Notes: a model not told the origin generated them from the letters alone. Positions 8,594 through 20,343 are shown, numbered from the stretch's first letter. The stretch: DNA of 32,000 nucleotides from Methanothermus fervidus DSM 2088 (GCA_000166095.1 CP002278.1:630001-662000), one strand, 5' to 3'. A program made the numbers and translations.

Positions 8594-8614
8594 ATCATAT
8601 CCTCCAAAAATTTC

Positions 8615-8623
8615 AAATAAAAA
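8615..8623 (-). terminator. Oligo-T tract (TTTTTATTT on the minus strand) just 3' of tRNA-Lys
   Basis: Minus strand reads ...CTCTCTCTTTTTATTTGAAA... right after the tRNA-Lys discriminator. Archaeal termination typically occurs at oligo-T. It lies only about 25 nt upstream of the rpoH start, so its role is ambiguous. Confidence 0.3.
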
Positions 8624-8630
8624 GAGAGAG

Positions 8631-8704
8631 CGGGCCCGACGGGATTTGAACCCGCGACTACTTGGTTAAAAGCCAAGCGCTCTACCAGACTGAGCTACGG
8701 GCCC
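8631..8704 (-). tRNA. tRNA-Lys (anticodon UUU)
   Basis: Hand-folded cloverleaf: GGGCCCG/CGGGCCC acceptor, GCTC/GAGC D stem, CTTGG-CTTTTAA-CCAAG anticodon arm, GCGGG-TTCAAAT-CCCGT T arm. No encoded CCA and no intron. Confidence 0.93.
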
Positions 8705-8709
8705 AAGTG

Positions 8710-8782
<73 letters not shown>

Positions 8783-8840
8783 AGGTGAGTAGATAAAAAC
8801 TCATGTTAGTGTCCAAATAGTTTGGTATGGTAGCCATCAA

Positions 8841-8855
8841 TATATAAATATTTCG
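8841..8855 (-). promoter_or_regulatory. BRE/TATA promoter for the tRNA-Asp/tRNA-Lys unit
   Basis: Minus strand reads CGAAA-TA-TTTATATA, a close match to the methanogen box A/BRE consensus. The TATA lies about 60 nt upstream of the mature tRNA-Asp 5' end. Confidence 0.6.
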
Positions 8856-8885
8856 GTTTTATGAATGTGTTAAAGAGATTTTTTA

Positions 8886-8960
8886 TGGGGCCACCCGGAT
8901 TTGAACCGGGGTCTCAGGCTCCCAAAGCCCAAAGGATAGACCAGGCTACCCTATGGCCCC
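8886..8960 (-). tRNA. tRNA-Pro (anticodon UGG)
   Basis: Hand-folded: GGGGCCA/TGGCCCC acceptor, TGGGC-TTTGGGA-GCCTG anticodon arm (G37), CCCGG-TTCAAAT-CCGGG T arm, 4-nt variable loop. Confidence 0.9.
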
Positions 8961-8990
8961 TTTAACTCAATTATGAAATTTAAAGTTCAA

Positions 8991-9063
<73 letters not shown>

Positions 9064-11960: not shown

Positions 11961-12638
11961 TTACGATTTCTTTACTAGTTTAGCTTCTTCTATTCTTAGA
12001 ATTCCATGATAATTAAACCATTCTTTTTTTGCTTTAACAATTTTTATTTTCTTTTTAAATATAGGACAATCTAAAACTAAAGTCTCAGCTTCTCCTCCTT
12101 CAAAAGCTATATGTATTCCATATTTTTTATTAAGTTCTAAAATATCTTCTAATGTTTTATAATTTAATTCTTTTCCTAGCCACGATTTATCAAAACCTTC
12201 TGCAGAAACAGAAGTTATAATAACTTTAAAATTTCTTTTTATTATTTTTTCCATGTAATCTAAAGGATCTACCTGCCAGAAAGGTGCTTTAGCTTTGATA
12301 CCTAAGCGTTTACATACTTTATATACCCTTGACCTTTGGTAATTTGATTCTAGCCCTCCAAAATATAATACGTCAATGTCTAATTTTTTTAAAGCTTTCT
12401 CTAAATCTTTTACTTCTTTTTCTTTTTCTCCTTTTGTTTTTACTTGTATTAGAGGAATTCCAACAGCTTTTGACGATAATTTAGTTAATTCAATGTTTGG
12501 AACATGAAACATGTATGATTCTGGATTTTCTGGGAATACAGAAATAAGATATTTTACTTCTTCAGTTTTAGATTTTAAAGCTTCATATAGAGCCATGGTA
12601 CTATCCTTACCACCTGAATACAATACTCCTGCTTTCAT
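11961..12638 (-). CDS. dph6: Diphthine--ammonia ligase (PP-loop ATPase, MJ0570/Dph6 family)
   Basis: 225-aa ORF with the N-terminal PP-loop motif VLYSGGKDS. Size and layout are typical of archaeal Dph6. Confidence 0.8.
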   Translation of the reverse strand: MKAGVLYSGGKDSTMALYEALKSKTEEVKYLISVFPENPESYMFHVPNIELTKLSSKAVGIPLIQVKTKGEKEKEVKDLEKALKKLDIDVLYFGGLESNYQRSRVYKVCKRLGIKAKAPFWQVDPLDYMEKIIKRNFKVIITSVSAEGFDKSWLGKELNYKTLEDILELNKKYGIHIAFEGGEAETLVLDCPIFKKKIKIVKAKKEWFNYHGILRIEEAKLVKKS

Positions 12639-13414
12639 TTTACTTTAATTCTCCTAACAGTTCTTATTATTGCATCTGAAAAAATTCCAGCAATTGCAAC
12701 TAAAATACCTAAAATTCCTGAAAATAAAACAATCTGTGATTTTGGTGGCATCATAGATTTCACATTTTTAACCTTTTCTTCAACCGGTCCATGGATTCCT
12801 GTAACTATAACATTTTCAGCTGATAACATGTCCAAAACATTGTCAACTTTTGATGCATCAACAGTAATGCATGCATTCACTCTACTAGATTTTGTATATA
12901 TGCCTCCTGTATAAATTAGCCAGTCAGATATTTTTTTTGTTATATTGTTTGGATCTCCACCTTCAGTTTTAATGATGATTTTGCCATTTGAATATACTTG
13001 CCAATCTTTTATATGAGGATCTAAATATTTTAATTTGCTTTCTATAAATTGTTTTCTTTGTTGTGAGAATGGGTCGGTATGCATTATAATCCCTGTTGTA
13101 GAAATATTATGTACTCCTGGTGTGGATTTGATTTTTGAAACAATTGAACCTATATCTACACCAGTAGGTATTTCTACCGTTATAGTTTCAGTTGCATGTA
13201 TTGTGTATTGATAATAGCCCCGTACTAATGATGGAATGTCTGTATAAATAGGTAGTAGTAGGAAAGCACCTCCAACACAACCTAAAATAAAGCTTGTAAT
13301 AAATGCAAATATGATGTTTTTCTTTGAATATGGTATTAGAGAAGCTACTGAAAAAATGAAAAGCATCAACAGAATGTAAATTATAATTATCAATGTTGTA
13401 ATCAATATGTTCAT
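12635..13414 (-). CDS. Membrane protein, 2 N-terminal TM + ~160-aa extracytoplasmic domain + C-terminal TM; function unknown
   Basis: 259-aa ORF. Hydrophobic segments at approximately residues 3-28, 33-57 and 228-250. SD GGAGG upstream. 4-nt ATGA overlap with dph6. Confidence 0.6.
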   Translation of the reverse strand: MNILITTLIIIIYILLMLFIFSVASLIPYSKKNIIFAFITSFILGCVGGAFLLLPIYTDIPSLVRGYYQYTIHATETITVEIPTGVDIGSIVSKIKSTPGVHNISTTGIIMHTDPFSQQRKQFIESKLKYLDPHIKDWQVYSNGKIIIKTEGGDPNNITKKISDWLIYTGGIYTKSSRVNACITVDASKVDNVLDMLSAENVIVTGIHGPVEEKVKNVKSMMPPKSQIVLFSGILGILVAIAGIFSDAIIRTVRRIKVK

Positions 13415-13425
13415 TGTTTACCTCC

Positions 13426-13824
13426 TTAACTAATCTTTGTGAAAATTATTTTATCGCTATTTTGATCATATATTATTTCCCATGTCTCACCTGGATTCAT
13501 GCTAGTAGGTGAAATTAAGTTTGAGTTTTCAGGTATAATATCTATTTTTGTAATGTTGTTGACATAAACACCAGTATCATTTACAGTTATTGTGTAGTTT
13601 CCATCCGGTAATGTGATATTAACCATGTAGCCAGGTCCATTAGTGTACACTAAATTTATGGTTTCAGCTACTTTTTCTCCTGCCATCCTGGCTATACCTG
13701 TTTTACTTACTTCAGTACTATTTAATTCTGAATTTATGAAATATCCTATTCCAGAAATAATTATAGTTGCAATAAGTATGGTTAGAATTATATCTCCACT
13801 TAACACTTCACCTTTTTCATCCAT
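13426..13824 (-). CDS. Small type IV pilin-like protein (class III signal peptide)
   Basis: 132-aa ORF. Start MDEKG|EVLSGDIILTILIATIIISGIGYFI (K-G then hydrophobic helix, Asp at +6). Shares the VYxNGPG motif with the 150-aa ORF at 18966-19418. 5 N-x-S/T sequons. Confidence 0.7.
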   Translation of the reverse strand: MDEKGEVLSGDIILTILIATIIISGIGYFINSELNSTEVSKTGIARMAGEKVAETINLVYTNGPGYMVNITLPDGNYTITVNDTGVYVNNITKIDIIPENSNLISPTSMNPGETWEIIYDQNSDKIIFTKIS

Positions 13825-13836
13825 AGCTAATTCTCC

Positions 13837-15003
13837 TTAAGGTAATCCTAGGTGTTTAAAGTAATTTTTATAATTTGAGGATAAACAAAAAACATAACCA
13901 TAGGGATCATATACATAACGGTATCCTGGTGGAAGCAAACCTGAAGGTAAAAGGAAAAATCTAACATTTGCATCGTTGTCATATGCTACTCCAAAACCTA
14001 ACACTCCATTAAAGTATTCATGATCTATTTTTGAAATAGCGGGGGATGAATCAATTTGTATAACTCCTGGTTTACTTTTATAATCGAGAGGATCACCTAA
14101 AATAAATGTACTTATTCTACCTTTACCATTAGGGCATGTTTTATTTTCTAATCTATCAAAAAATGATAAACCCTGAGGATCATAGAAATAATAAGGTCTT
14201 GATCTATTCAATAAGTTACTTGGGTTATTTGTTCCATTTAAATAATCCCAAAGATGCTGTAATTTGCCTGCACTATCCACATAATCATCAAAATGATAGT
14301 CACTTATGATCATTCCTCCAGGGCCAAAATAGCTAGAATAGTAAGGACTACGCCAGATGACATTACTTTGCCTACATTTAGTGTTTATCCAAATATAAGG
14401 ATCATCTAATCCTTCAATAGAGACATACACATCTATAGGTTCTGTATATCCTTCAAATGCTTGATTTTGTTGCACAACTTTAATTTTTGCAGAAGGGATG
14501 TGTACATAAAAACCAAAAGGTTCAGAGTCTGTTTGATAAATATAAACATCGTTAATATCAAAAACAGCTTGTGTATAATTATCTACAAGTATATCGTTAA
14601 TATATATTTGCCTTCCAGTTTCATTTTCTAATTTTCTACATAAATCTATAGTTCCGTTGTTTAGTGCATTAACAATCAATTTCCTAACATATAAAACACT
14701 ATTATCGGTACTTGTATCATTATAATAACTACGTGGCTGGAAAAATCGTCGTTCGTCTATAACTTTACGAGTAGCATTATAAGCCGCATTACGACCTGCA
14801 TCTTTCACAGCTTTTTGTAAATAAGATTGTATATTATCAGCTACTTTTATAGTTACGTCTCCGCCAATTGCTATAGCTATAATTCTATTAGCTTCATCAA
14901 CTATATGACCATACGCAACAGCTAATAATATGATTGGTATAAGTATTAGAACTGCAAGTGGTGTAAAGGCATATCCTCTATTATCCAAAATTAATCCCTC
15001 CAA
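13837..15003 (-). CDS. Pilin-like protein with class III-type signal peptide, large globular domain of unknown family
   Basis: 388-aa ORF. Start MEGLILDNRG|YAFTPLAVLILIPIILLAVAYG. About 8 N-x-S/T sequons. Overlaps the upstream gene by 13 nt. Confidence 0.6.
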   Translation of the reverse strand: MEGLILDNRGYAFTPLAVLILIPIILLAVAYGHIVDEANRIIAIAIGGDVTIKVADNIQSYLQKAVKDAGRNAAYNATRKVIDERRFFQPRSYYNDTSTDNSVLYVRKLIVNALNNGTIDLCRKLENETGRQIYINDILVDNYTQAVFDINDVYIYQTDSEPFGFYVHIPSAKIKVVQQNQAFEGYTEPIDVYVSIEGLDDPYIWINTKCRQSNVIWRSPYYSSYFGPGGMIISDYHFDDYVDSAGKLQHLWDYLNGTNNPSNLLNRSRPYYFYDPQGLSFFDRLENKTCPNGKGRISTFILGDPLDYKSKPGVIQIDSSPAISKIDHEYFNGVLGFGVAYDNDANVRFFLLPSGLLPPGYRYVYDPYGYVFCLSSNYKNYFKHLGLP

Positions 15004-17027
15004 AGATCTAATCTTACAGGGATAGCATTAGGTAAATTTCCAGTGTATAAAGCTTCTGCCTGTATAGCGTTTGGATCCACATTATACCCTGCACTTTGAA
15101 GTTTTTGTATTAAATTTTGTTTTGCATTTTCTATGGCTCCACTTGCAGTTTCATTAAATGATGTTGCCCATACGTGAGTAAATGTCGTATATATCACAGC
15201 AACCCTAGTACCTGAAAATATCTCAGCATAATTATCTCCAGATTCCCATCCCCGACTTGGACCATAAACTGTAACCCTAACATAGTAATCTCCTGGATTA
15301 CAGGTGTAATTGTCAGGGGTTCCACCACTTGTCAATATATTGTAGTTATTTTGCCTATCTATTGAACCAAGATCTATTGCAAACTGTGGCATGCCATCAT
15401 AGTATAGTTTGTATTGACCAGTTTTTGGATCTTTAACTTCAACAGTTACTCTCTTTGTATCTAAACCAACTCCCATGAATAGGTATATTCTCTTTGCATC
15501 CTGACCAACAGATATCAACCTTTCTTGTGTATTTATATTAGTATCGCTTTGATAGCTATTAAATGGGAAATTCAGCCATTTAACTCCAAGTGAACTATAA
15601 GATACTGAGACATATGAATTCACAAGTCCTACAAAATCATAATCTCCGCCTGGAGCATAATCCCATATAGTTACACGTACCCTATTGTTAACTCCTGCCT
15701 TGAGCTTATCTCCAATATAAATAATCCCTGGTAAATTACCATATCCATCTCCTACTGCACTATAACTTGTTCCATTGTAATTAAAAGAACAGAATACTAC
15801 CTGCCACCCTTCACCATTATTAACTTCAACAACTGCACCATCAACAGATCCATATGGATTTAAGACAACATAGGCATCATGAACTGTTACATTACTAGGT
15901 ATTGGGACATCTGTAACACTGCAGACAGCAGATCCTTCAGTTGTGGAAGAAGGAATATCTCTAAGTCTAAAGACTTGATTTTCTGCATTTGGATTATCCT
16001 TACCTATCAAATCATTCCAGGATATTGTTAATGCTGGAGCAGAAGTTAATTTCCCAGTATTTAAGTCAAAGAAATATCTACTTGTTGGAGCTCCAATACC
16101 AGCTAAATCTTGCAATGGAAATGTTTGAAATGTTACAGTCTTTGGGACTTTTATTGTTGTTGTGTAATTTGCAATCAATGAGAACCATGGCATGTCATAC
16201 GAATATGAACTCATATTTAAAAAAGCAACATAAAATGAATTGTTACCAGGTATTAAGCGAGTTGCATTTCCATAATACATGTAGAAATACCATATATTGG
16301 AATAGTAAAGATATTTAAACGCTGATTTATATGCATAATTATTTTGACCATTTAAAACTAAATTTGCAGAAAATCTGTCATTATTATTACAAGCACTACC
16401 AATAATCCATTTAACAGAGTTTATGGTTGTATTTTGTGGGAGTGAACAATTTATTGGAACTGGTCTTTTCCACCTATCACAACCCCAATAAGGATAGTTA
16501 TAAAGCCCTCCATATCTCCAAGGATTAAAATTAGTAAGCCAGTTATGGAAATTCCAAACTGTTGTTGTAGTATTAATCTGTTTATCTTCAAAAGGAACTT
16601 CTGGAATATAATACCATGCTCTTCCTAACCAACCTTCCTGTGGAGCAGAAACAACCTTAACTCTTGATGCAACATCCTTATGTACTAAACCAGGGATATC
16701 CTTACGAGCAACTTCATGACCATCTATCAAAAATCTATATCCAATATCAGGATATAAAGTCTCATTAAGCTTAGTTCCTATAATATACCCTGCTCCTGTG
16801 ACATTGCCATTACTATACTTAACAGCTGCAGTTATTAAGCTTCCATCTTGTTCTAGAATATTTAATGTGTCTGCTGCTATATCACTCAAACGTTGCTGAT
16901 CACTGCCTATGTATTCAGGTAAAACATAATAATTGAGGATTGAAGTTAGAAATATAAAGACAATTGTAAGAGCAATAATTGAATCAGTTGTAAATATTAA
17001 GCCTTTTTCATCCAACATTGACACCAT
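14991..17027 (-). CDS. Large pilin-like / putative surface-exposed protein with class III-type signal peptide
   Basis: 678-aa ORF. Start MVSMLDEKG|LIFTTDSIIALTIVFIFLTSIL. 13 N-x-S/T sequons counted by hand. Y/W/N/G-rich and poor in K/E compared with neighbouring cytoplasmic proteins. Confidence 0.65.
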   Translation of the reverse strand: MVSMLDEKGLIFTTDSIIALTIVFIFLTSILNYYVLPEYIGSDQQRLSDIAADTLNILEQDGSLITAAVKYSNGNVTGAGYIIGTKLNETLYPDIGYRFLIDGHEVARKDIPGLVHKDVASRVKVVSAPQEGWLGRAWYYIPEVPFEDKQINTTTTVWNFHNWLTNFNPWRYGGLYNYPYWGCDRWKRPVPINCSLPQNTTINSVKWIIGSACNNNDRFSANLVLNGQNNYAYKSAFKYLYYSNIWYFYMYYGNATRLIPGNNSFYVAFLNMSSYSYDMPWFSLIANYTTTIKVPKTVTFQTFPLQDLAGIGAPTSRYFFDLNTGKLTSAPALTISWNDLIGKDNPNAENQVFRLRDIPSSTTEGSAVCSVTDVPIPSNVTVHDAYVVLNPYGSVDGAVVEVNNGEGWQVVFCSFNYNGTSYSAVGDGYGNLPGIIYIGDKLKAGVNNRVRVTIWDYAPGGDYDFVGLVNSYVSVSYSSLGVKWLNFPFNSYQSDTNINTQERLISVGQDAKRIYLFMGVGLDTKRVTVEVKDPKTGQYKLYYDGMPQFAIDLGSIDRQNNYNILTSGGTPDNYTCNPGDYYVRVTVYGPSRGWESGDNYAEIFSGTRVAVIYTTFTHVWATSFNETASGAIENAKQNLIQKLQSAGYNVDPNAIQAEALYTGNLPNAIPVRLDLWRD

Positions 17028-17035
17028 ATTTATTT

Positions 17036-17884
17036 TTAATGTTTAGGCCATACAAACAATTCTAGTCTTGCATTTACTTCTTCAATATACTCTAACTTAA
17101 TCATATTTTTTTCAGTGCCCTTTGGAACTTTTACAATGTAAAAATCCATGGTAGCATTTTTCGTTGCATCTAAAGTGTTTATAATAACTGAATTGGAACC
17201 GCTTTTTAAATAAGTGCTATTTATCTGCACTGGCGTATCGTTGAGATTTGTCTTATCTACAACTATATGACCATTAATATGGACCATAACATTAGTATAT
17301 CCATTATTCTTAATTAATATCCAATAATCATAATTATTTAATTCTGTATCAGAAATTGTGAAATATGTTATATATGGTTCTGGGGCTCCTTTCCATCTAA
17401 TAACATTAACTAGTGAGACTACAACATCTATTGGATATCTATTTACTCGTACTTCTCTTTCAACACGGTAAATATTAGGTACATTACTTGGAGGTGATCC
17501 TAAATCTCTAATAACTGTATTGTTATGATCTACAACCCTCAAATAAAAATCATATTGTGATCCCAGCATATTTTGCACTTGTTCTTTTCTTAGTGCAAAT
17601 AATTTAAAACTTGATAAATGATTTTTTTCAACCACATTATTTCTTACAATTGCTAAACCAGGGATTCCTTGTCCAGTTAAATACCAATCTGGTGGTCTTC
17701 CAGGAGTTTCGACTAATGCATCTGCAACATTGGTTGCTGCTCTATCAATGGATGCATGAAACACTGTTAATTGAGAAAGATAAAATAAATTATCCATAGC
17801 TACAGTTGCCATGCCAAAAATTATTGTCAGTGGTATTAAAGCCAATAATAAATCACTACTTAATACAATGCCTCTTTCTTCCAT
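17036..17884 (-). CDS. Pilin-like protein with class III-type signal peptide
   Basis: 282-aa ORF. Start MEERG|IVLSSDLLLALIPLTIIFGMATVAM. First gene of the cluster. No SD upstream, and the TATA lies about 30 nt upstream of the ATG. Confidence 0.65.
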   Translation of the reverse strand: MEERGIVLSSDLLLALIPLTIIFGMATVAMDNLFYLSQLTVFHASIDRAATNVADALVETPGRPPDWYLTGQGIPGLAIVRNNVVEKNHLSSFKLFALRKEQVQNMLGSQYDFYLRVVDHNNTVIRDLGSPPSNVPNIYRVEREVRVNRYPIDVVVSLVNVIRWKGAPEPYITYFTISDTELNNYDYWILIKNNGYTNVMVHINGHIVVDKTNLNDTPVQINSTYLKSGSNSVIINTLDATKNATMDFYIVKVPKGTEKNMIKLEYIEEVNARLELFVWPKH

Positions 17885-17909
17885 ACATGTACAATTTTTT
17901 TGAATTTTA

Positions 17910-17924
17910 ATATATAATCTTTTT
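17910..17924 (-). promoter_or_regulatory. TATA box/BRE-like element for the pilin-like operon; spacing predicts a (near-)leaderless transcript
   Basis: Minus strand reads AAAAAGA-TTATATAT (17924..17910). Its 3' edge is 25 nt from the ATG at 17884. No SD lies in between. Confidence 0.5.
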
Positions 17925-18149
17925 TATTTAACTCCATCAGCTGGAAGTCTCCATATGAATGTATAGATATGGAATTAAAAAGCATTTACATCAAAAGGGC
18001 TAAGCTATGGAAATAAGTTAAGAATTTATATAATCATGAGAATAAAAATAAGGAAAAAGTCTGTTTGAGAGAAGACATTTACTTAAAGAATAATTTTATA
18101 TAGAGAAATGGTCTCTAGCAAGTTTTCTTGATGAAGCAAAAGTGAGGAG

Positions 18150-18938
18150 TTATATTTTACCAATTATTTTAGTAGGTTTGTTTCCTTTCACAGATAATCT
18201 TCCACCTTCTACTTTCAATTTAACAATTTCACCTTCTTTAACATCAAAATTTCCCTTCTCAACAATATATATATCAGGTAACACATTAGCTCTAATATCA
18301 TAATCTACCTTAACATGCACTGTGTTTTTCCCAACTTCCACAACTTCACCATAAGTATAGTTCCTATAATATTTAATCCTAAAAACATAATACATGAGTA
18401 AAACAAGGAATATTGAAAATAGGATTAAAGTAATTGATGGAAAATATTGAAATGGTGCATATAACACAAAGAGAGGATTATCAGCAATCATAACAAGAAA
18501 AATACCTATTCCTACATAACTCAAGAAAAAATTACGGTATACTTCATAATCCTGAGGATACATAACTCTAATTTGATATTTTAAAATATAATAAATGAGA
18601 CAAATAGTTGCAATGCCAAGGAATAAATATAAGGGTAATGAAAGGTAATTAAAAATGTATAAGATTGATAACAAAACAAAAGTTATTGAAAGAATTTGTA
18701 ACTTAAAAACAGTCTTTTCCTTCTCTTTAATATCCATGATCTTAATGTCTTTAACTATTATTTCTCCTTCATCCTTGTTTTTATTCATTTCCCATTTATT
18801 TTGGAATTTCTTAAACTCTCTTCCTAACTCTCTAATATTTATTCTTTTTATTTTATTTGGTAAATTTACAATTTCAATGACTATAGTTCCCACCAATGAA
18901 CATAATTTCAGAAAATATTCACCTATTTTTGATAACAT
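18150..18938 (-). CDS. Polytopic membrane protein with C-terminal small beta-rich soluble domain; function unknown
   Basis: 262-aa ORF. Charged N-terminal region, about 4 hydrophobic segments (residues ~80-190), and a C-terminal ~70 aa alternating beta-type pattern (GEVVEVGKNTVHVKVDYD...GEIVKLKVEGG). SD AAGGTGG lies 5 nt before the ATG, 27 nt after the upstream pilin-like gene. Confidence 0.55.
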   Translation of the reverse strand: MLSKIGEYFLKLCSLVGTIVIEIVNLPNKIKRINIRELGREFKKFQNKWEMNKNKDEGEIIVKDIKIMDIKEKEKTVFKLQILSITFVLLSILYIFNYLSLPLYLFLGIATICLIYYILKYQIRVMYPQDYEVYRNFFLSYVGIGIFLVMIADNPLFVLYAPFQYFPSITLILFSIFLVLLMYYVFRIKYYRNYTYGEVVEVGKNTVHVKVDYDIRANVLPDIYIVEKGNFDVKEGEIVKLKVEGGRLSVKGNKPTKIIGKI

Positions 18939-18965: not shown

Positions 18966-19418
18966 TTATACCTTACTAATAGTAATGGATCCTCCTATTG
19001 GCCACTCAACAACAACTGTATTCCAACCTTTATTAAGTTGGATGGGAGGAACATTTGTGAGAGGAATATTTGTGAAATTATACTGAGTAAATGTTGTTAC
19101 ATTGTGAGGCCCGTCACTACATGTTACCTGTAATGTAACATTGTTTCCACTAACAGTTAAGTTTGTGGTATCAGGTACATAAACAGTGACAGTCCTTTTG
19201 GCTCCTGGACCATTTGAATAGACAACATCAAGTGCATGGGCAATCTCTTGAGCAGCTACCTTAGCATCCGATACTTTTGAAATGTCCATACTTGCATCTA
19301 TAGATTTTCCAATCATGGGGATCATCACATATACCAAAATAAAAAATAAAAGTGCTATAATAAGAATATATTCAACTGAGACTATTTGACCTTTTGAATT
19401 CATAAAATCGCCAACCAA
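18966..19418 (-). CDS. Type IV pilin-like protein (class III signal peptide, KGQ-type)
   Basis: 150-aa ORF. Start MVGDFMNSKG|QIVSVEYILIIALLFFILVYVMIP resembles the archaeal QxSxExxxL class III motif. Paralogous to the 132-aa ORF (VYSNGPG vs VYTNGPG). 4 sequons. Confidence 0.75.
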   Translation of the reverse strand: MVGDFMNSKGQIVSVEYILIIALLFFILVYVMIPMIGKSIDASMDISKVSDAKVAAQEIAHALDVVYSNGPGAKRTVTVYVPDTTNLTVSGNNVTLQVTCSDGPHNVTTFTQYNFTNIPLTNVPPIQLNKGWNTVVVEWPIGGSITISKV

Positions 19419-19419
19419 A

Positions 19420-20343
19420 TCATGTATATTCTTTTCTTTCCCTTACAAGTTTTAAAAGTTCAGCAGGAGTATCTATATCCTCAATTTCATATTGCCTAAT
19501 AACAGGGACTCCCTTAAGAGATTCCTTCACATTTTCACTTTTCATAATAAAAGCTGCAAGAGACCCTGCTACTAATGAAATATCTTTAAGTGAGGATGCC
19601 AATTTTAACAATCTACTTTCACTTCTATTCTTCTCTAAACCTGTGATCAATGTTTCGTTTCTTTTTTTACCAAAGTTTGCTAATGCATCAAAAGGTGTCC
19701 TTCCTGTTTTAATGAAACTAAATCTGGAAAATTTTATCTTGTTCTTATTTTCATACTTTAAATTTTCAGGGACTTGGAAAACATCTATTGAAAATGTTAT
19801 TTTACAACCTAAATATTTTTCTAGAGCTAAGGCAACATCAAGAGACATTCTCCCCAATCCTCTTTCATATTTATATATAGATTCTCTAGACACGTTTATA
19901 TGATCTGCAAGATCTTTTAAAGATAAACCAAGTTTTTCTCTAACCCTACGTAATTTTCTTCCATCAATGTTTACGTAATACCCGCCCCTATCTGCAAATA
20001 TCTCTGGATACTCTCCTTCAGCTATTATCCTTTTTAATGTATTAACACTTGATGCAGGAATTCCATATCTGGTATAAATCACGCCATCTTCTAAAGGTTT
20101 ATCTTTTGATCTTATACCAACCAAAAATGGTGAGGCTAGAAGGTTTGAAGCAACCTTTTTCATTTCATTAGCTTGTATTTCATTGAATGAATTTATATTT
20201 ACAAGTACTTTCAATAACAATAATAATAGTTCTTTCCGTGCTAAAAAATCGAAACAACTTCTTTCATATATTCTTGATACTTCAAAACCCTGGTCAATGA
20301 AAAAATTATACATGTCTTCGATAAGCTTTACTCTAGATTCCAT
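19420..20343 (-). CDS. Putative HTH-type (XRE-like) transcriptional regulator, archaeal COG1395-like
   Basis: 307-aa ORF with a central helix-turn-helix LSLKDLADHINVSRESIYKYERG. Its stop is 1 nt from the start of the pilin-like gene. Confidence 0.7.
   Translation of the reverse strand: MESRVKLIEDMYNFFIDQGFEVSRIYERSCFDFLARKELLLLLLKVLVNINSFNEIQANEMKKVASNLLASPFLVGIRSKDKPLEDGVIYTRYGIPASSVNTLKRIIAEGEYPEIFADRGGYYVNIDGRKLRRVREKLGLSLKDLADHINVSRESIYKYERGLGRMSLDVALALEKYLGCKITFSIDVFQVPENLKYENKNKIKFSRFSFIKTGRTPFDALANFGKKRNETLITGLEKNRSESRLLKLASSLKDISLVAGSLAAFIMKSENVKESLKGVPVIRQYEIEDIDTPAELLKLVRERKEYT

Follow-up and report, generated by a model that had tools for sequence, protein, structure and literature searches.

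A candidate accessory gene set of an Epd-like type IV pilus in Methanothermus fervidus DSM 2088

Methanothermus fervidus DSM 2088 carries, on the minus strand of a 32,000-nucleotide stretch of its genome (GCA_000166095.1, CP002278.1:630001-662000; the whole stretch is called the window below), a run of genes for proteins with prepilin-like N-termini. Family searches of the window confirmed that no pilus ATPase, platform protein or A24 prepilin peptidase is encoded within its 32 kb. The question raised by this locus is which surface system such a gene set would serve. We consider the genes at 19403-11961 (minus strand) to be an accessory gene set of an Epd-like ('clade 1' or 'system 1') type IV pilus of M. 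fervidus, and we put the probability of this reading at roughly 0.75. It is carried by the class III signal peptides of five protein families and by the orthologues of these genes, which throughout the Methanobacteriaceae lie in synteny with a prepilin peptidase of the EppA type.

A first-pass annotation of the sequence had placed a pilin-like operon at 12635-17924, among housekeeping genes. All of its open reading frames (ORFs) were found on the minus strand at the positions that it gave, and the housekeeping surroundings were confirmed from the annotation of the neighbouring genes. The co-oriented genes of 12635-17924 are present, but the co-oriented unit goes on to 11961, where it includes the Dph6 gene, and to 19403, where it includes the 145 aa pilin gene. 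The features of the locus are as follows.

18966-19403 (ORF to 19418), minus strand: small pilin, 145 aa; MNSKG/QIVSVEY, DUF361-type class III signal peptide
18150-18938, minus strand: DUF2101 (COG4025) polytopic membrane protein, 262 aa; Pfam PF09874, E 3e-40
17917-17910, minus strand: TATA-box-like octamer TTATATAT, preceded by an A-rich stretch; putative operon promoter
17036-17884, minus strand: pilin-like protein, 282 aa, first cistron; N-terminus MEERG/IVLSSDLLLALIPL
14991-17018, minus strand: large modular pilin, 674/675 aa ("678 aa" ORF to 17027); M(L)DEKG/LIFTTDS; proposed tip adhesin
13837-14988, minus strand: pilin-like protein, 383 aa ("388 aa" ORF from TTG 15003); M-DNRG/YAFTPL; proposed capping subunit
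13426-13824, minus strand: small pilin, 132 aa; MDEKG/EVLSGD; VYTNGPGY motif in common with the 145 aa pilin
12635-13414, minus strand: membrane protein with three transmembrane helices (3-TM protein, from a transmembrane scan), 259 aa; proposed membrane accessory of the assembly platform
11961-12638, minus strand: diphthine-ammonia ligase (archaeal Dph6), 225 aa, last cistron; NCBIfam TIGR03679 equivalog
19420-20343, minus strand: PDDEXK_19 + helix-turn-helix (HTH) regulator (PRK04140-type); NCBIfam PRK04140 equivalog, 308 bits

The slash marks the position after Gly(-1). Families are named below by ORF length (282, 678, 388 and 132 aa), and that of the 150 aa ORF by its corrected length of 145 aa. 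The 678 aa and 383 aa products were 100% identical to M. fervidus DSM 2088 proteins annotated as hypothetical.

Start codons and class III signal peptides

The true start codons were assigned from the positions of Shine-Dalgarno (SD) motifs together with the family consensus. The 383 aa gene was assigned to TTG 14988, which has GGAGGG 7 nt upstream; TTG 15003, from which the 388 aa ORF had been read, sits inside this GGAGGG. The large pilin gene starts at 17015 or 17018, giving 674 or 675 aa, and the 145 aa gene, called as a 150 aa ORF, starts at ATG 19403. With the corrected starts, all five leaders have about five residues (one residue more in the large pilin if it starts at 17018), and all five proteins carry a leader of the form M-x-x-[K/R]-G. 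The gene spacing had been reported as -13 to +12 nt with SD motifs; three starts had been placed too early, and the corrected start of the 383 aa gene turns the -13 nt overlap, an artefact, into a 2 nt gap.

In class III signal peptides the leader is short, position -2 is basic and position -1 is Gly (or Ala) (PMC3387779); a hydrophobic stretch of about 20 residues is expected to follow the cleavage site as the only transmembrane segment. The N-termini quoted in the first-pass annotation were correct, namely MEERG/IVLSSD for the 282 aa, DEKG/LIFTTD for the 678 aa, DNRG/YAFTPL for the 388 aa, MDEKG/EVLSGD for the 132 aa and NSKG/QIVSVE for the 150 aa ORF. In a Kyte-Doolittle scan each protein had a single hydrophobic segment, which follows the Gly directly and begins no more than 12 residues from it, and the combination of the motif with this segment was found in none of the 25 other proteins of the window.

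Conservation of the motif was scored across 57-73 orthologues per family from other Methanobacteriaceae. G(-1) was invariant in most orthologues, and D(-4) and K/R(-2) dominated, near-invariantly, in all five families; the family-specific residues from +1 to +12 were also near-invariant. The 145 aa and 132 aa families have G/QxSxE, which is of the DUF361 type and places an acidic residue at +5. The 678 aa family has G/FIFTTDA, with D at +6 in 55 of 57 orthologues, and the 282 aa family has G/xxFSLDLLLALIPL, likewise with D at +6. The 388 aa family (G/YAFTPL) is the only one that has no acidic residue at +5 or +6; Pro stands at +5 in 52 of its 57 orthologues, position +6 is Leu, Met, Ile or Val in 50 of the 57, and Asp and Glu are missing from the residues common at +6. 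Of 37 orthologues of each small pilin, 36 for the 145 aa protein and 7 for the 132 aa protein matched the Class_IIIsignal model (PF04021/DUF361) at E <=0.01; the 282, 678 and 388 aa families did not match it. The reading of these N-termini as class III, type IV pilin-like signals is supported by the motif conservation, by the Class_IIIsignal matches in orthologues and by the synteny with EppA described below.

The similarity that had been noticed in four of the proteins beyond the N-terminus (NVADAL, DIAADTL, KVADNI and KVAETI) was confirmed as a conserved segment, and it aligns between the 282 and 678 aa families (hhalign). N-glycosylation sequons occur in the pilin-like proteins at 1.4-3.8 per 100 aa, compared with a density of <=1.0 per 100 aa in all but one of the 23 window proteins that have no predicted membrane segment, and this enrichment fits an extracellular location.

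The two small pilins of M. fervidus differ from more than 60 orthologues by a one-residue insertion after +1, so that G/QxSxE becomes G/QIVSVE in one and G/EVLSGD in the other. The insertion places the acidic residue at +6 rather than +5 and so in the register found everywhere in the 282 and 678 aa families. This shift suggests a co-adaptation, either of helix packing or of the peptidase.

Synteny with EppA in the Methanobacteriaceae

The genomic setting of the orthologues was surveyed in an EppA-anchored scan of the best 80 of 137 relatives, all of them Methanobacteriaceae. A homologue search with the Methanothermobacter EppA listed no relatives other than those from Methanobacterium and Methanothermobacter among its best 120. 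The order of genes in Methanothermobacter sp. K4 and in Methanobacterium sp. MBAC-LM begins with EppA, a Class_IIIsignal protein, DUF2101 and a small divergent gene, and continues with the orthologues of the 282, 678, 388 and 132 aa genes, an extra protein of about 133-139 aa, the 3-TM protein and Diphthami_syn_2. The EppA-type peptidase of both strains has the domains Peptidase_A24, Arc_PepC and Arc_PepC_II. In MBAC-LM, the Class_IIIsignal protein is missing from the position after EppA, and the divergent small protein is a weak Class_IIIsignal match.

The window proteins were searched by tblastn against 84 loci, comprising the 80 loci of the scan and four others, with the following numbers of loci matched.

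DUF2101 (next to EppA): 79/84
145 aa small pilin (directly after the EppA gene): 73/84
Dph6 (operon end): 66/84
3-TM protein (always between the small pilins and dph6): 63/84
678 aa protein: 62/84
132 aa protein: 62/84
388 aa protein: 61/84
282 aa protein: 59/84

The loci with matches were essentially all those long enough to contain the genes. The block 282-678-388-132-3TM-Dph6 always kept its order and lay within 10 kb of EppA, either co-directional with it or inverted. DUF2101 accompanies both EppA and the small pilin as a conserved partner. No ORF with a T2SSE-type Walker A motif was present in any of the 80 EppA loci, which makes an ATPase encoded in trans the rule for this locus type.

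Variants of the locus were also observed. Two extra small genes of Methanothermobacter and Methanobacterium are absent from M. fervidus, a divergent one in the gap between the DUF2101 and 282 aa genes and another after the 132 aa gene (8612-8995, minus strand, and 13556-13957, plus strand, in locus L002; 8445-8834, minus strand, and 13646-14065, plus strand, in locus L004). Methanobacterium sp. UBA44 (L019) and ACI-7 (L022) have an operon without the 678 and 388 aa orthologues, in the order DUF2101, 132-like, 282-like (with an MDNKG/F leader), 3-TM and Dph6, which implies that some lineages can dispense with the large adhesin and the acid-less subunit or have replaced them. In Methanobacterium oryzae (L062, 11280-13700), the 3-TM-Dph6 pair still adjoins EppA-DUF2101, and the pilin genes are missing from that place. 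A complete EppA-pilin operon of the Methanobacteriaceae type, with 44-57% identity to the window proteins, was found in a metagenome-assembled genome labelled 'Methanomicrobiales archaeon' (L057, JBNGDB010000001.1), which is probably a taxonomic mislabel and not a case of transfer.

Subunits, membrane proteins and transcription unit

The five pilin-like families are related to different degrees. The two small-pilin families, of 145 and 132 aa, are paralogous to each other (hhalign probability 98.9%, E 1e-17; BLASTP E 6e-11), and about 100 N-terminal residues are homologous between the 282 and 678 aa families (hhalign probability 89%, E 2e-6, 100 columns). The 388 aa family has only the signal peptide in common with the others. 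Sequence-profile searches of the PDB returned nothing for any of six families, and the 282 aa protein had no Pfam match; no family has a Pfam model or a solved relative. The AlphaFold2 (AF2) model of the 383 aa protein (predicted local distance difference test, pLDDT, 84; predicted TM-score, pTM, 0.80) consists of a transmembrane helix, a helical hairpin and a mixed beta domain, and had no structural match in the PDB. The globular parts, which the first-pass annotation had been unable to assign to a characterised family, matched no solved pilin in the PDB profile searches or with Foldseek.

The AF2 model of the 678 aa protein (pLDDT 87.7) has a 48-residue N-terminal helix (residues 14-61) and two short helices, followed by several beta-sandwich domains, and a Foldseek search of the PDB with this model gave only generic tandem beta-sandwich matches with TM-scores <=0.2. 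Orthologues with 40-50% identity, all annotated as hypothetical, are found in Methanothermobacter, Methanobacterium and many uncultured Methanobacteriales. In an exhaustive profile search, the full-length family comprised only about 20 representative clusters, and its named full-length relatives were all of Methanobacteriales type. Below E ~1e-12, nearly all the matches listed covered only profile positions 1-100/150, in proteins of about 130-1194 aa; those sampled came from Altiarchaeota, MSBL1 and other archaea, and 3 of 10 carry VWA domains. As the N-terminal residues, about 140 in number, recur in other archaea with different downstream domains, we read the 678 aa protein from its sequence as a modular pilin, made of a common N-terminal pilin module and lineage-specific cargo. 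Pfam gave only weak matches for the family (DUF7262 in 35 of 68 members and DUF7288 in 25 of 68). A DUF2341/PilY-like domain has been proposed in the literature for the large proteins; for this family it was rejected, as 0 of 68 members matched DUF2341.

A second, nearly identical Methanothermus strain allowed the divergence of the locus to be compared. The flanking genes of the two strains are 99-100% identical, with synonymous divergence (dS) of 0.004-0.05, and the 678 aa orthologue is 87.7% identical, with a nonsynonymous divergence (dN) of 0.074, a dS of 0.078 and a dN/dS of 0.95 (14991-17018 compared with L085:10001-12064). The identity between the strains falls to only about 33%, with indels, in a block of some 70 residues (residues ~66-135) that follows the N-terminal helix directly. 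This block fits a surface-exposed variable loop under diversifying selection or recombination, and such rapid local divergence is what would be expected of an exposed adhesin. The dN/dS of the 383 aa and 282 aa genes is also raised between the strains, to about 0.5.

The 3-TM protein has two N-terminal transmembrane helices, a loop domain of about 170 residues and one C-terminal transmembrane helix, and the helices are the most conserved parts of the alignment. Pfam gave only weak and scattered hints of ferredoxin-like domains in it, and a sequence-profile search of the PDB gave nothing. The start of the Dph6 gene and the stop of the 3-TM gene share 4 nt (ATGA), and the Dph6 product matched TIGR03679 with 282 bits (cut-off 197). 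Dph6 is a housekeeping enzyme that modifies a translation factor, and its linkage to pilus genes had been noted in PMC4858521.

The 265 bp gap at 17885-18149, between the DUF2101 and 282 aa genes, contains no ORF of >=60 aa and holds the TATA-like box. The first-pass annotation had proposed a TATA box at 17910-17917 and a leaderless first cistron. The box was confirmed upstream of the 282 aa gene, where 25 nt separate the end of TTATATAT from the ATG, and as this gene has no SD motif in M. fervidus, a leaderless or near-leaderless mRNA is plausible for the first cistron. The orthologues in other genera also have TATA-like boxes upstream, but they carry SD motifs and a longer leader, and a leaderless start as a conserved feature of the 282 aa gene was therefore rejected. 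A scan for sigma-70 promoters and terminators, which is uninformative for an archaeon, gave counts at the level of shuffled sequence.

Where other genera have EppA, M. fervidus has the regulator gene, which ends 16 nt short of the 145 aa pilin gene. None of the 80 EppA loci from other genera contains this gene, and the second Methanothermus strain has it; the PDDEXK_19 + HTH protein may be a lineage-specific regulator of the pair formed by the small pilin and DUF2101. The flanking genes are housekeeping genes, for RNA polymerase subunits, S12, NusA, four tRNAs, lysine biosynthesis, TiaS and enzymes of the tricarboxylic acid (TCA) cycle type, and the GC content is uniform along the window. The four tRNA genes (Lys-UUU, Asp-GUC, Pro-UGG and Thr-UGU) form a cluster at 8630-9063 (minus strand), upstream of the RNA polymerase operon and between it and a divergently oriented THUMP methyltransferase gene.

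Assignment to a pilus system and rival explanations

A 'clade 1' type IV pilus system was defined in 2016 by Makarova, Koonin and Albers in Methanococci, Methanobacteria, M. kandleri and Thermococci (PMC4858521). It consists of a CpaF-like ATPase, two TadC proteins, a 9-TM EppA, five or more minor pilins, large proteins that are putative tip adhesins, and additional membrane proteins; COG4025 (DUF2101, arCOG05786) is among these membrane proteins in Table S1 of that study, and the loci of Methanobacteriales and Methanococci include a PP-loop ATPase, belonging to the diphthamide synthase family (arCOG00035), which is probably co-transcribed (PMC4858521). M. fervidus DSM 2088 is listed there with one clade 1 ATPase (Tables S2 and S3; the CpaF-like ATPase is arCOG01819). 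In the window, the corresponding features are DUF2101, a co-oriented and overlapping Dph6 gene and five minor pilin-like genes (seven in relatives). The system is therefore not unrecognised, as had been assumed, since the locus type was catalogued in 2016 down to the diphthamide-synthase-family gene and COG4025/DUF2101. The absence of machinery in cis, to which the first-pass annotation had pointed, is likewise no peculiarity. In M. maripaludis, the eppA-epd locus and epdJKL, both required for natural transformation, lie about 200 kb apart (PMC10133366), so that machinery encoded elsewhere is normal for the system.

The closest comparison, made by gene content and published descriptions, is with the Epd locus of M. 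maripaludis (eppA and epdA-I; 'system 1' of the 2026 MacSyFinder census), an 11-gene locus in which the deletion of any gene abolishes piliation (bioRxiv 10.64898/2026.04.22.720090). Both loci contain several genes for minor pilin-like proteins with DUF361-type signals, at least one very large class III protein, additional membrane proteins and a gene of the diphthamide synthase family. Both systems would use a dedicated EppA-type peptidase with 9 TM helices, which for M. fervidus is predicted from the loci of its relatives, and the genes for the ATPase and the two TadC-like platform proteins, in M. fervidus putatively, stand outside the locus. Unlike the Epd locus, the M. fervidus locus has no eppA, its large protein has no detectable DUF2341, and the 282, 678, 388 and 3-TM families are found only in genomes of Methanobacteriales type.

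The bacterial GspH-I-J-K and FimU-PilV-W-X + PilY1 sets, whose features used here are established knowledge, resemble this set in comprising four to five low-abundance pilin-like proteins that are encoded together, one large member included, and in their proposed role of priming assembly at the tip. GspK/PilX would correspond to the 383 aa family by analogy, as a subunit without the conserved acidic residue. The bacterial sets differ in that no sequence or fold similarity is detectable, the archaeal leader has K/R at -2, the acidic residue stands at +6 in three families, and the adhesin here is itself a pilin and not a separate beta-propeller protein of the PilY1 type. A second bacterial parallel is PilB/PilC of Streptococcus sanguinis (PMC8179133), in which functional domains are grafted on an N-terminal pilin module and the vWA domain of PilB parallels the VWA relatives of the 678 aa protein; the differences are C-terminal beta-sandwiches that are uncharacterised and have no VWA or lectin signature, the archaeal host and a different type of peptidase. 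The idea of a minor-pilin or tip complex put forward in the first-pass annotation is supported by these data, matching both the published model (PMC4858521) and the finding of a modular pilin.

The Mth60 fimbria of Methanothermobacter thermautotrophicus belongs to the same order, is the only described appendage of the Methanobacteriales and was placed under the same system in the 2016 census. Unlike this operon, its locus is mth58-61, and the fimbriae form by self-assembly in vitro; the present view is that their assembly is independent of the type IV route (PMC10370314). A link to Mth60 was rejected on this literature, and Mth60 is not the filament to be expected from the operon.

A mechanism can be proposed from these comparisons. 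The preproteins would insert into the membrane, and an EppA homologue encoded elsewhere would cleave the leader of about five residues after Gly. On a platform made of two TadC-like proteins, the mature N-terminal helices would then come together in a bundle and form a priming or tip complex, with assembly driven by a CpaF-like ATPase that would also be encoded elsewhere. The 383 aa subunit would cap the complex, by analogy with GspK/PilX, and would need no acidic residue because no subunit is proposed to stand above it. The 674 aa modular pilin would display adhesive, strain-variable domains at the tip, and the small pilins would connect the complex to a short major pilin encoded elsewhere. 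The likely outputs would be adhesion and/or DNA uptake, as for the Epd pili of M. maripaludis.

Several results weigh against the assignment to an Epd-like pilus. The M. fervidus genome was not among the relatives in the EppA-anchored scan, so the linkage to EppA is that of its orthologues. The four pilin-like proteins and the 3-TM protein of the window had no significant Pfam or NCBIfam match, and the M. fervidus 145 aa protein scored 13.4 bits against Class_IIIsignal (cut-off 23.7), a model to which the other four gave no hit. The globular parts match no solved pilin, the N-terminal helix of the 383 aa model is broken and of low confidence rather than one continuous long helix, and the DUF2341 searches of the 678 aa family were negative. 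A filament of this system has never been seen in any of the Methanobacteriales (PMC10370314), and the capping and tip roles are drawn from analogy only.

The missing matches might be taken to mean that these are ordinary uncleaved signal-anchor proteins that merely resemble class III substrates and are clustered for an unrelated envelope function, in accordance with window proteins below all the Pfam and NCBIfam thresholds and with the lack of structural matches to pilins. We regard this as very improbable, as D(-4), K/R(-2) and G(-1) are near-invariant in five otherwise unrelated families and there would be no reason to conserve them in uncleaved proteins; in addition, the linkage to EppA is tight and order-wide, and orthologues match Class_IIIsignal. 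A less distant alternative accepts the cleavage and supposes that the class III route serves only for membrane release and surface display, as in the bindosome of Sulfolobus (sugar-binding proteins with pilin-type signals), so that the products would form a cell-surface or pseudomurein-associated complex instead of a pilus tip, with the 678 aa protein as a surface binding protein or enzyme. There is precedent for class III substrates that do not form filaments (PMC3047682), no type IV filament has been seen in the order, the full-length 678 aa family is small and its named relatives are confined to Methanobacteriales-type genomes, and the globular domains are generic beta-sandwiches without a pilin match. 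Nevertheless, two DUF361-type small pilins together with an acid-less subunit are a composition typical of filament-priming sets, the orthologous locus type is needed for piliation in M. maripaludis, and the 678 aa protein resembles a pilin in its 48-residue N-terminal helix, which leaves surface display quite unlikely.

The missing filament would also be accounted for by a short pseudopilus for DNA uptake (competence) or for secretion through the pseudomurein sacculus, with no long adhesive pilus being formed. Natural transformation of M. maripaludis depends on its Epd genes (PMC10133366), and the operon is apparently housekeeping-linked and, as Dph6 is its last cistron, probably constitutive. 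We find this explanation rather doubtful, since the 674 aa pilin, being modular, rich in glycosylation sites and hypervariable between strains, fits an exposed adhesin or receptor better, and no DNA-binding or nuclease domains were detected in the locus with Pfam and NCBIfam. The assignment to an Epd-like type IV pilus was preferred.

The existence of this system has been known since it was predicted and catalogued in 2016, and it is experimentally untouched in Methanobacteriales; our finding refines it and opens no new category. The new details are the modular 678 aa pilin with its hypervariable segment, the acid-less 388 aa family and the lack of Pfam or solved relatives. A possibility beyond the assignment itself, which we hold to be rather unlikely, is that the 282, 678, 388 and 3-TM families are not Epd orthologues but a tip or priming module specific to Methanobacteriales and adapted to a pseudomurein-walled cell, in which diversifying selection or recombination would act on the exposed 678 aa protein between strains that are otherwise identical. 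If so, this protein might serve as a virus receptor or in the strain-specific recognition of other cells or of DNA donors, and translational coupling to Dph6, an enzyme of an essential pathway, would keep the system constitutively expressed. The EppA-linked gene set is present in every sequenced Methanobacteriales genome examined, including gut Methanobrevibacter and biotechnological Methanothermobacter, and no type IV filament, adhesion or DNA-uptake function has so far been tied to it. The operon offers concrete targets in the genetically tractable Methanothermobacter, namely the predicted cap subunit, the strain-variable modular adhesin and the two conserved membrane accessories.

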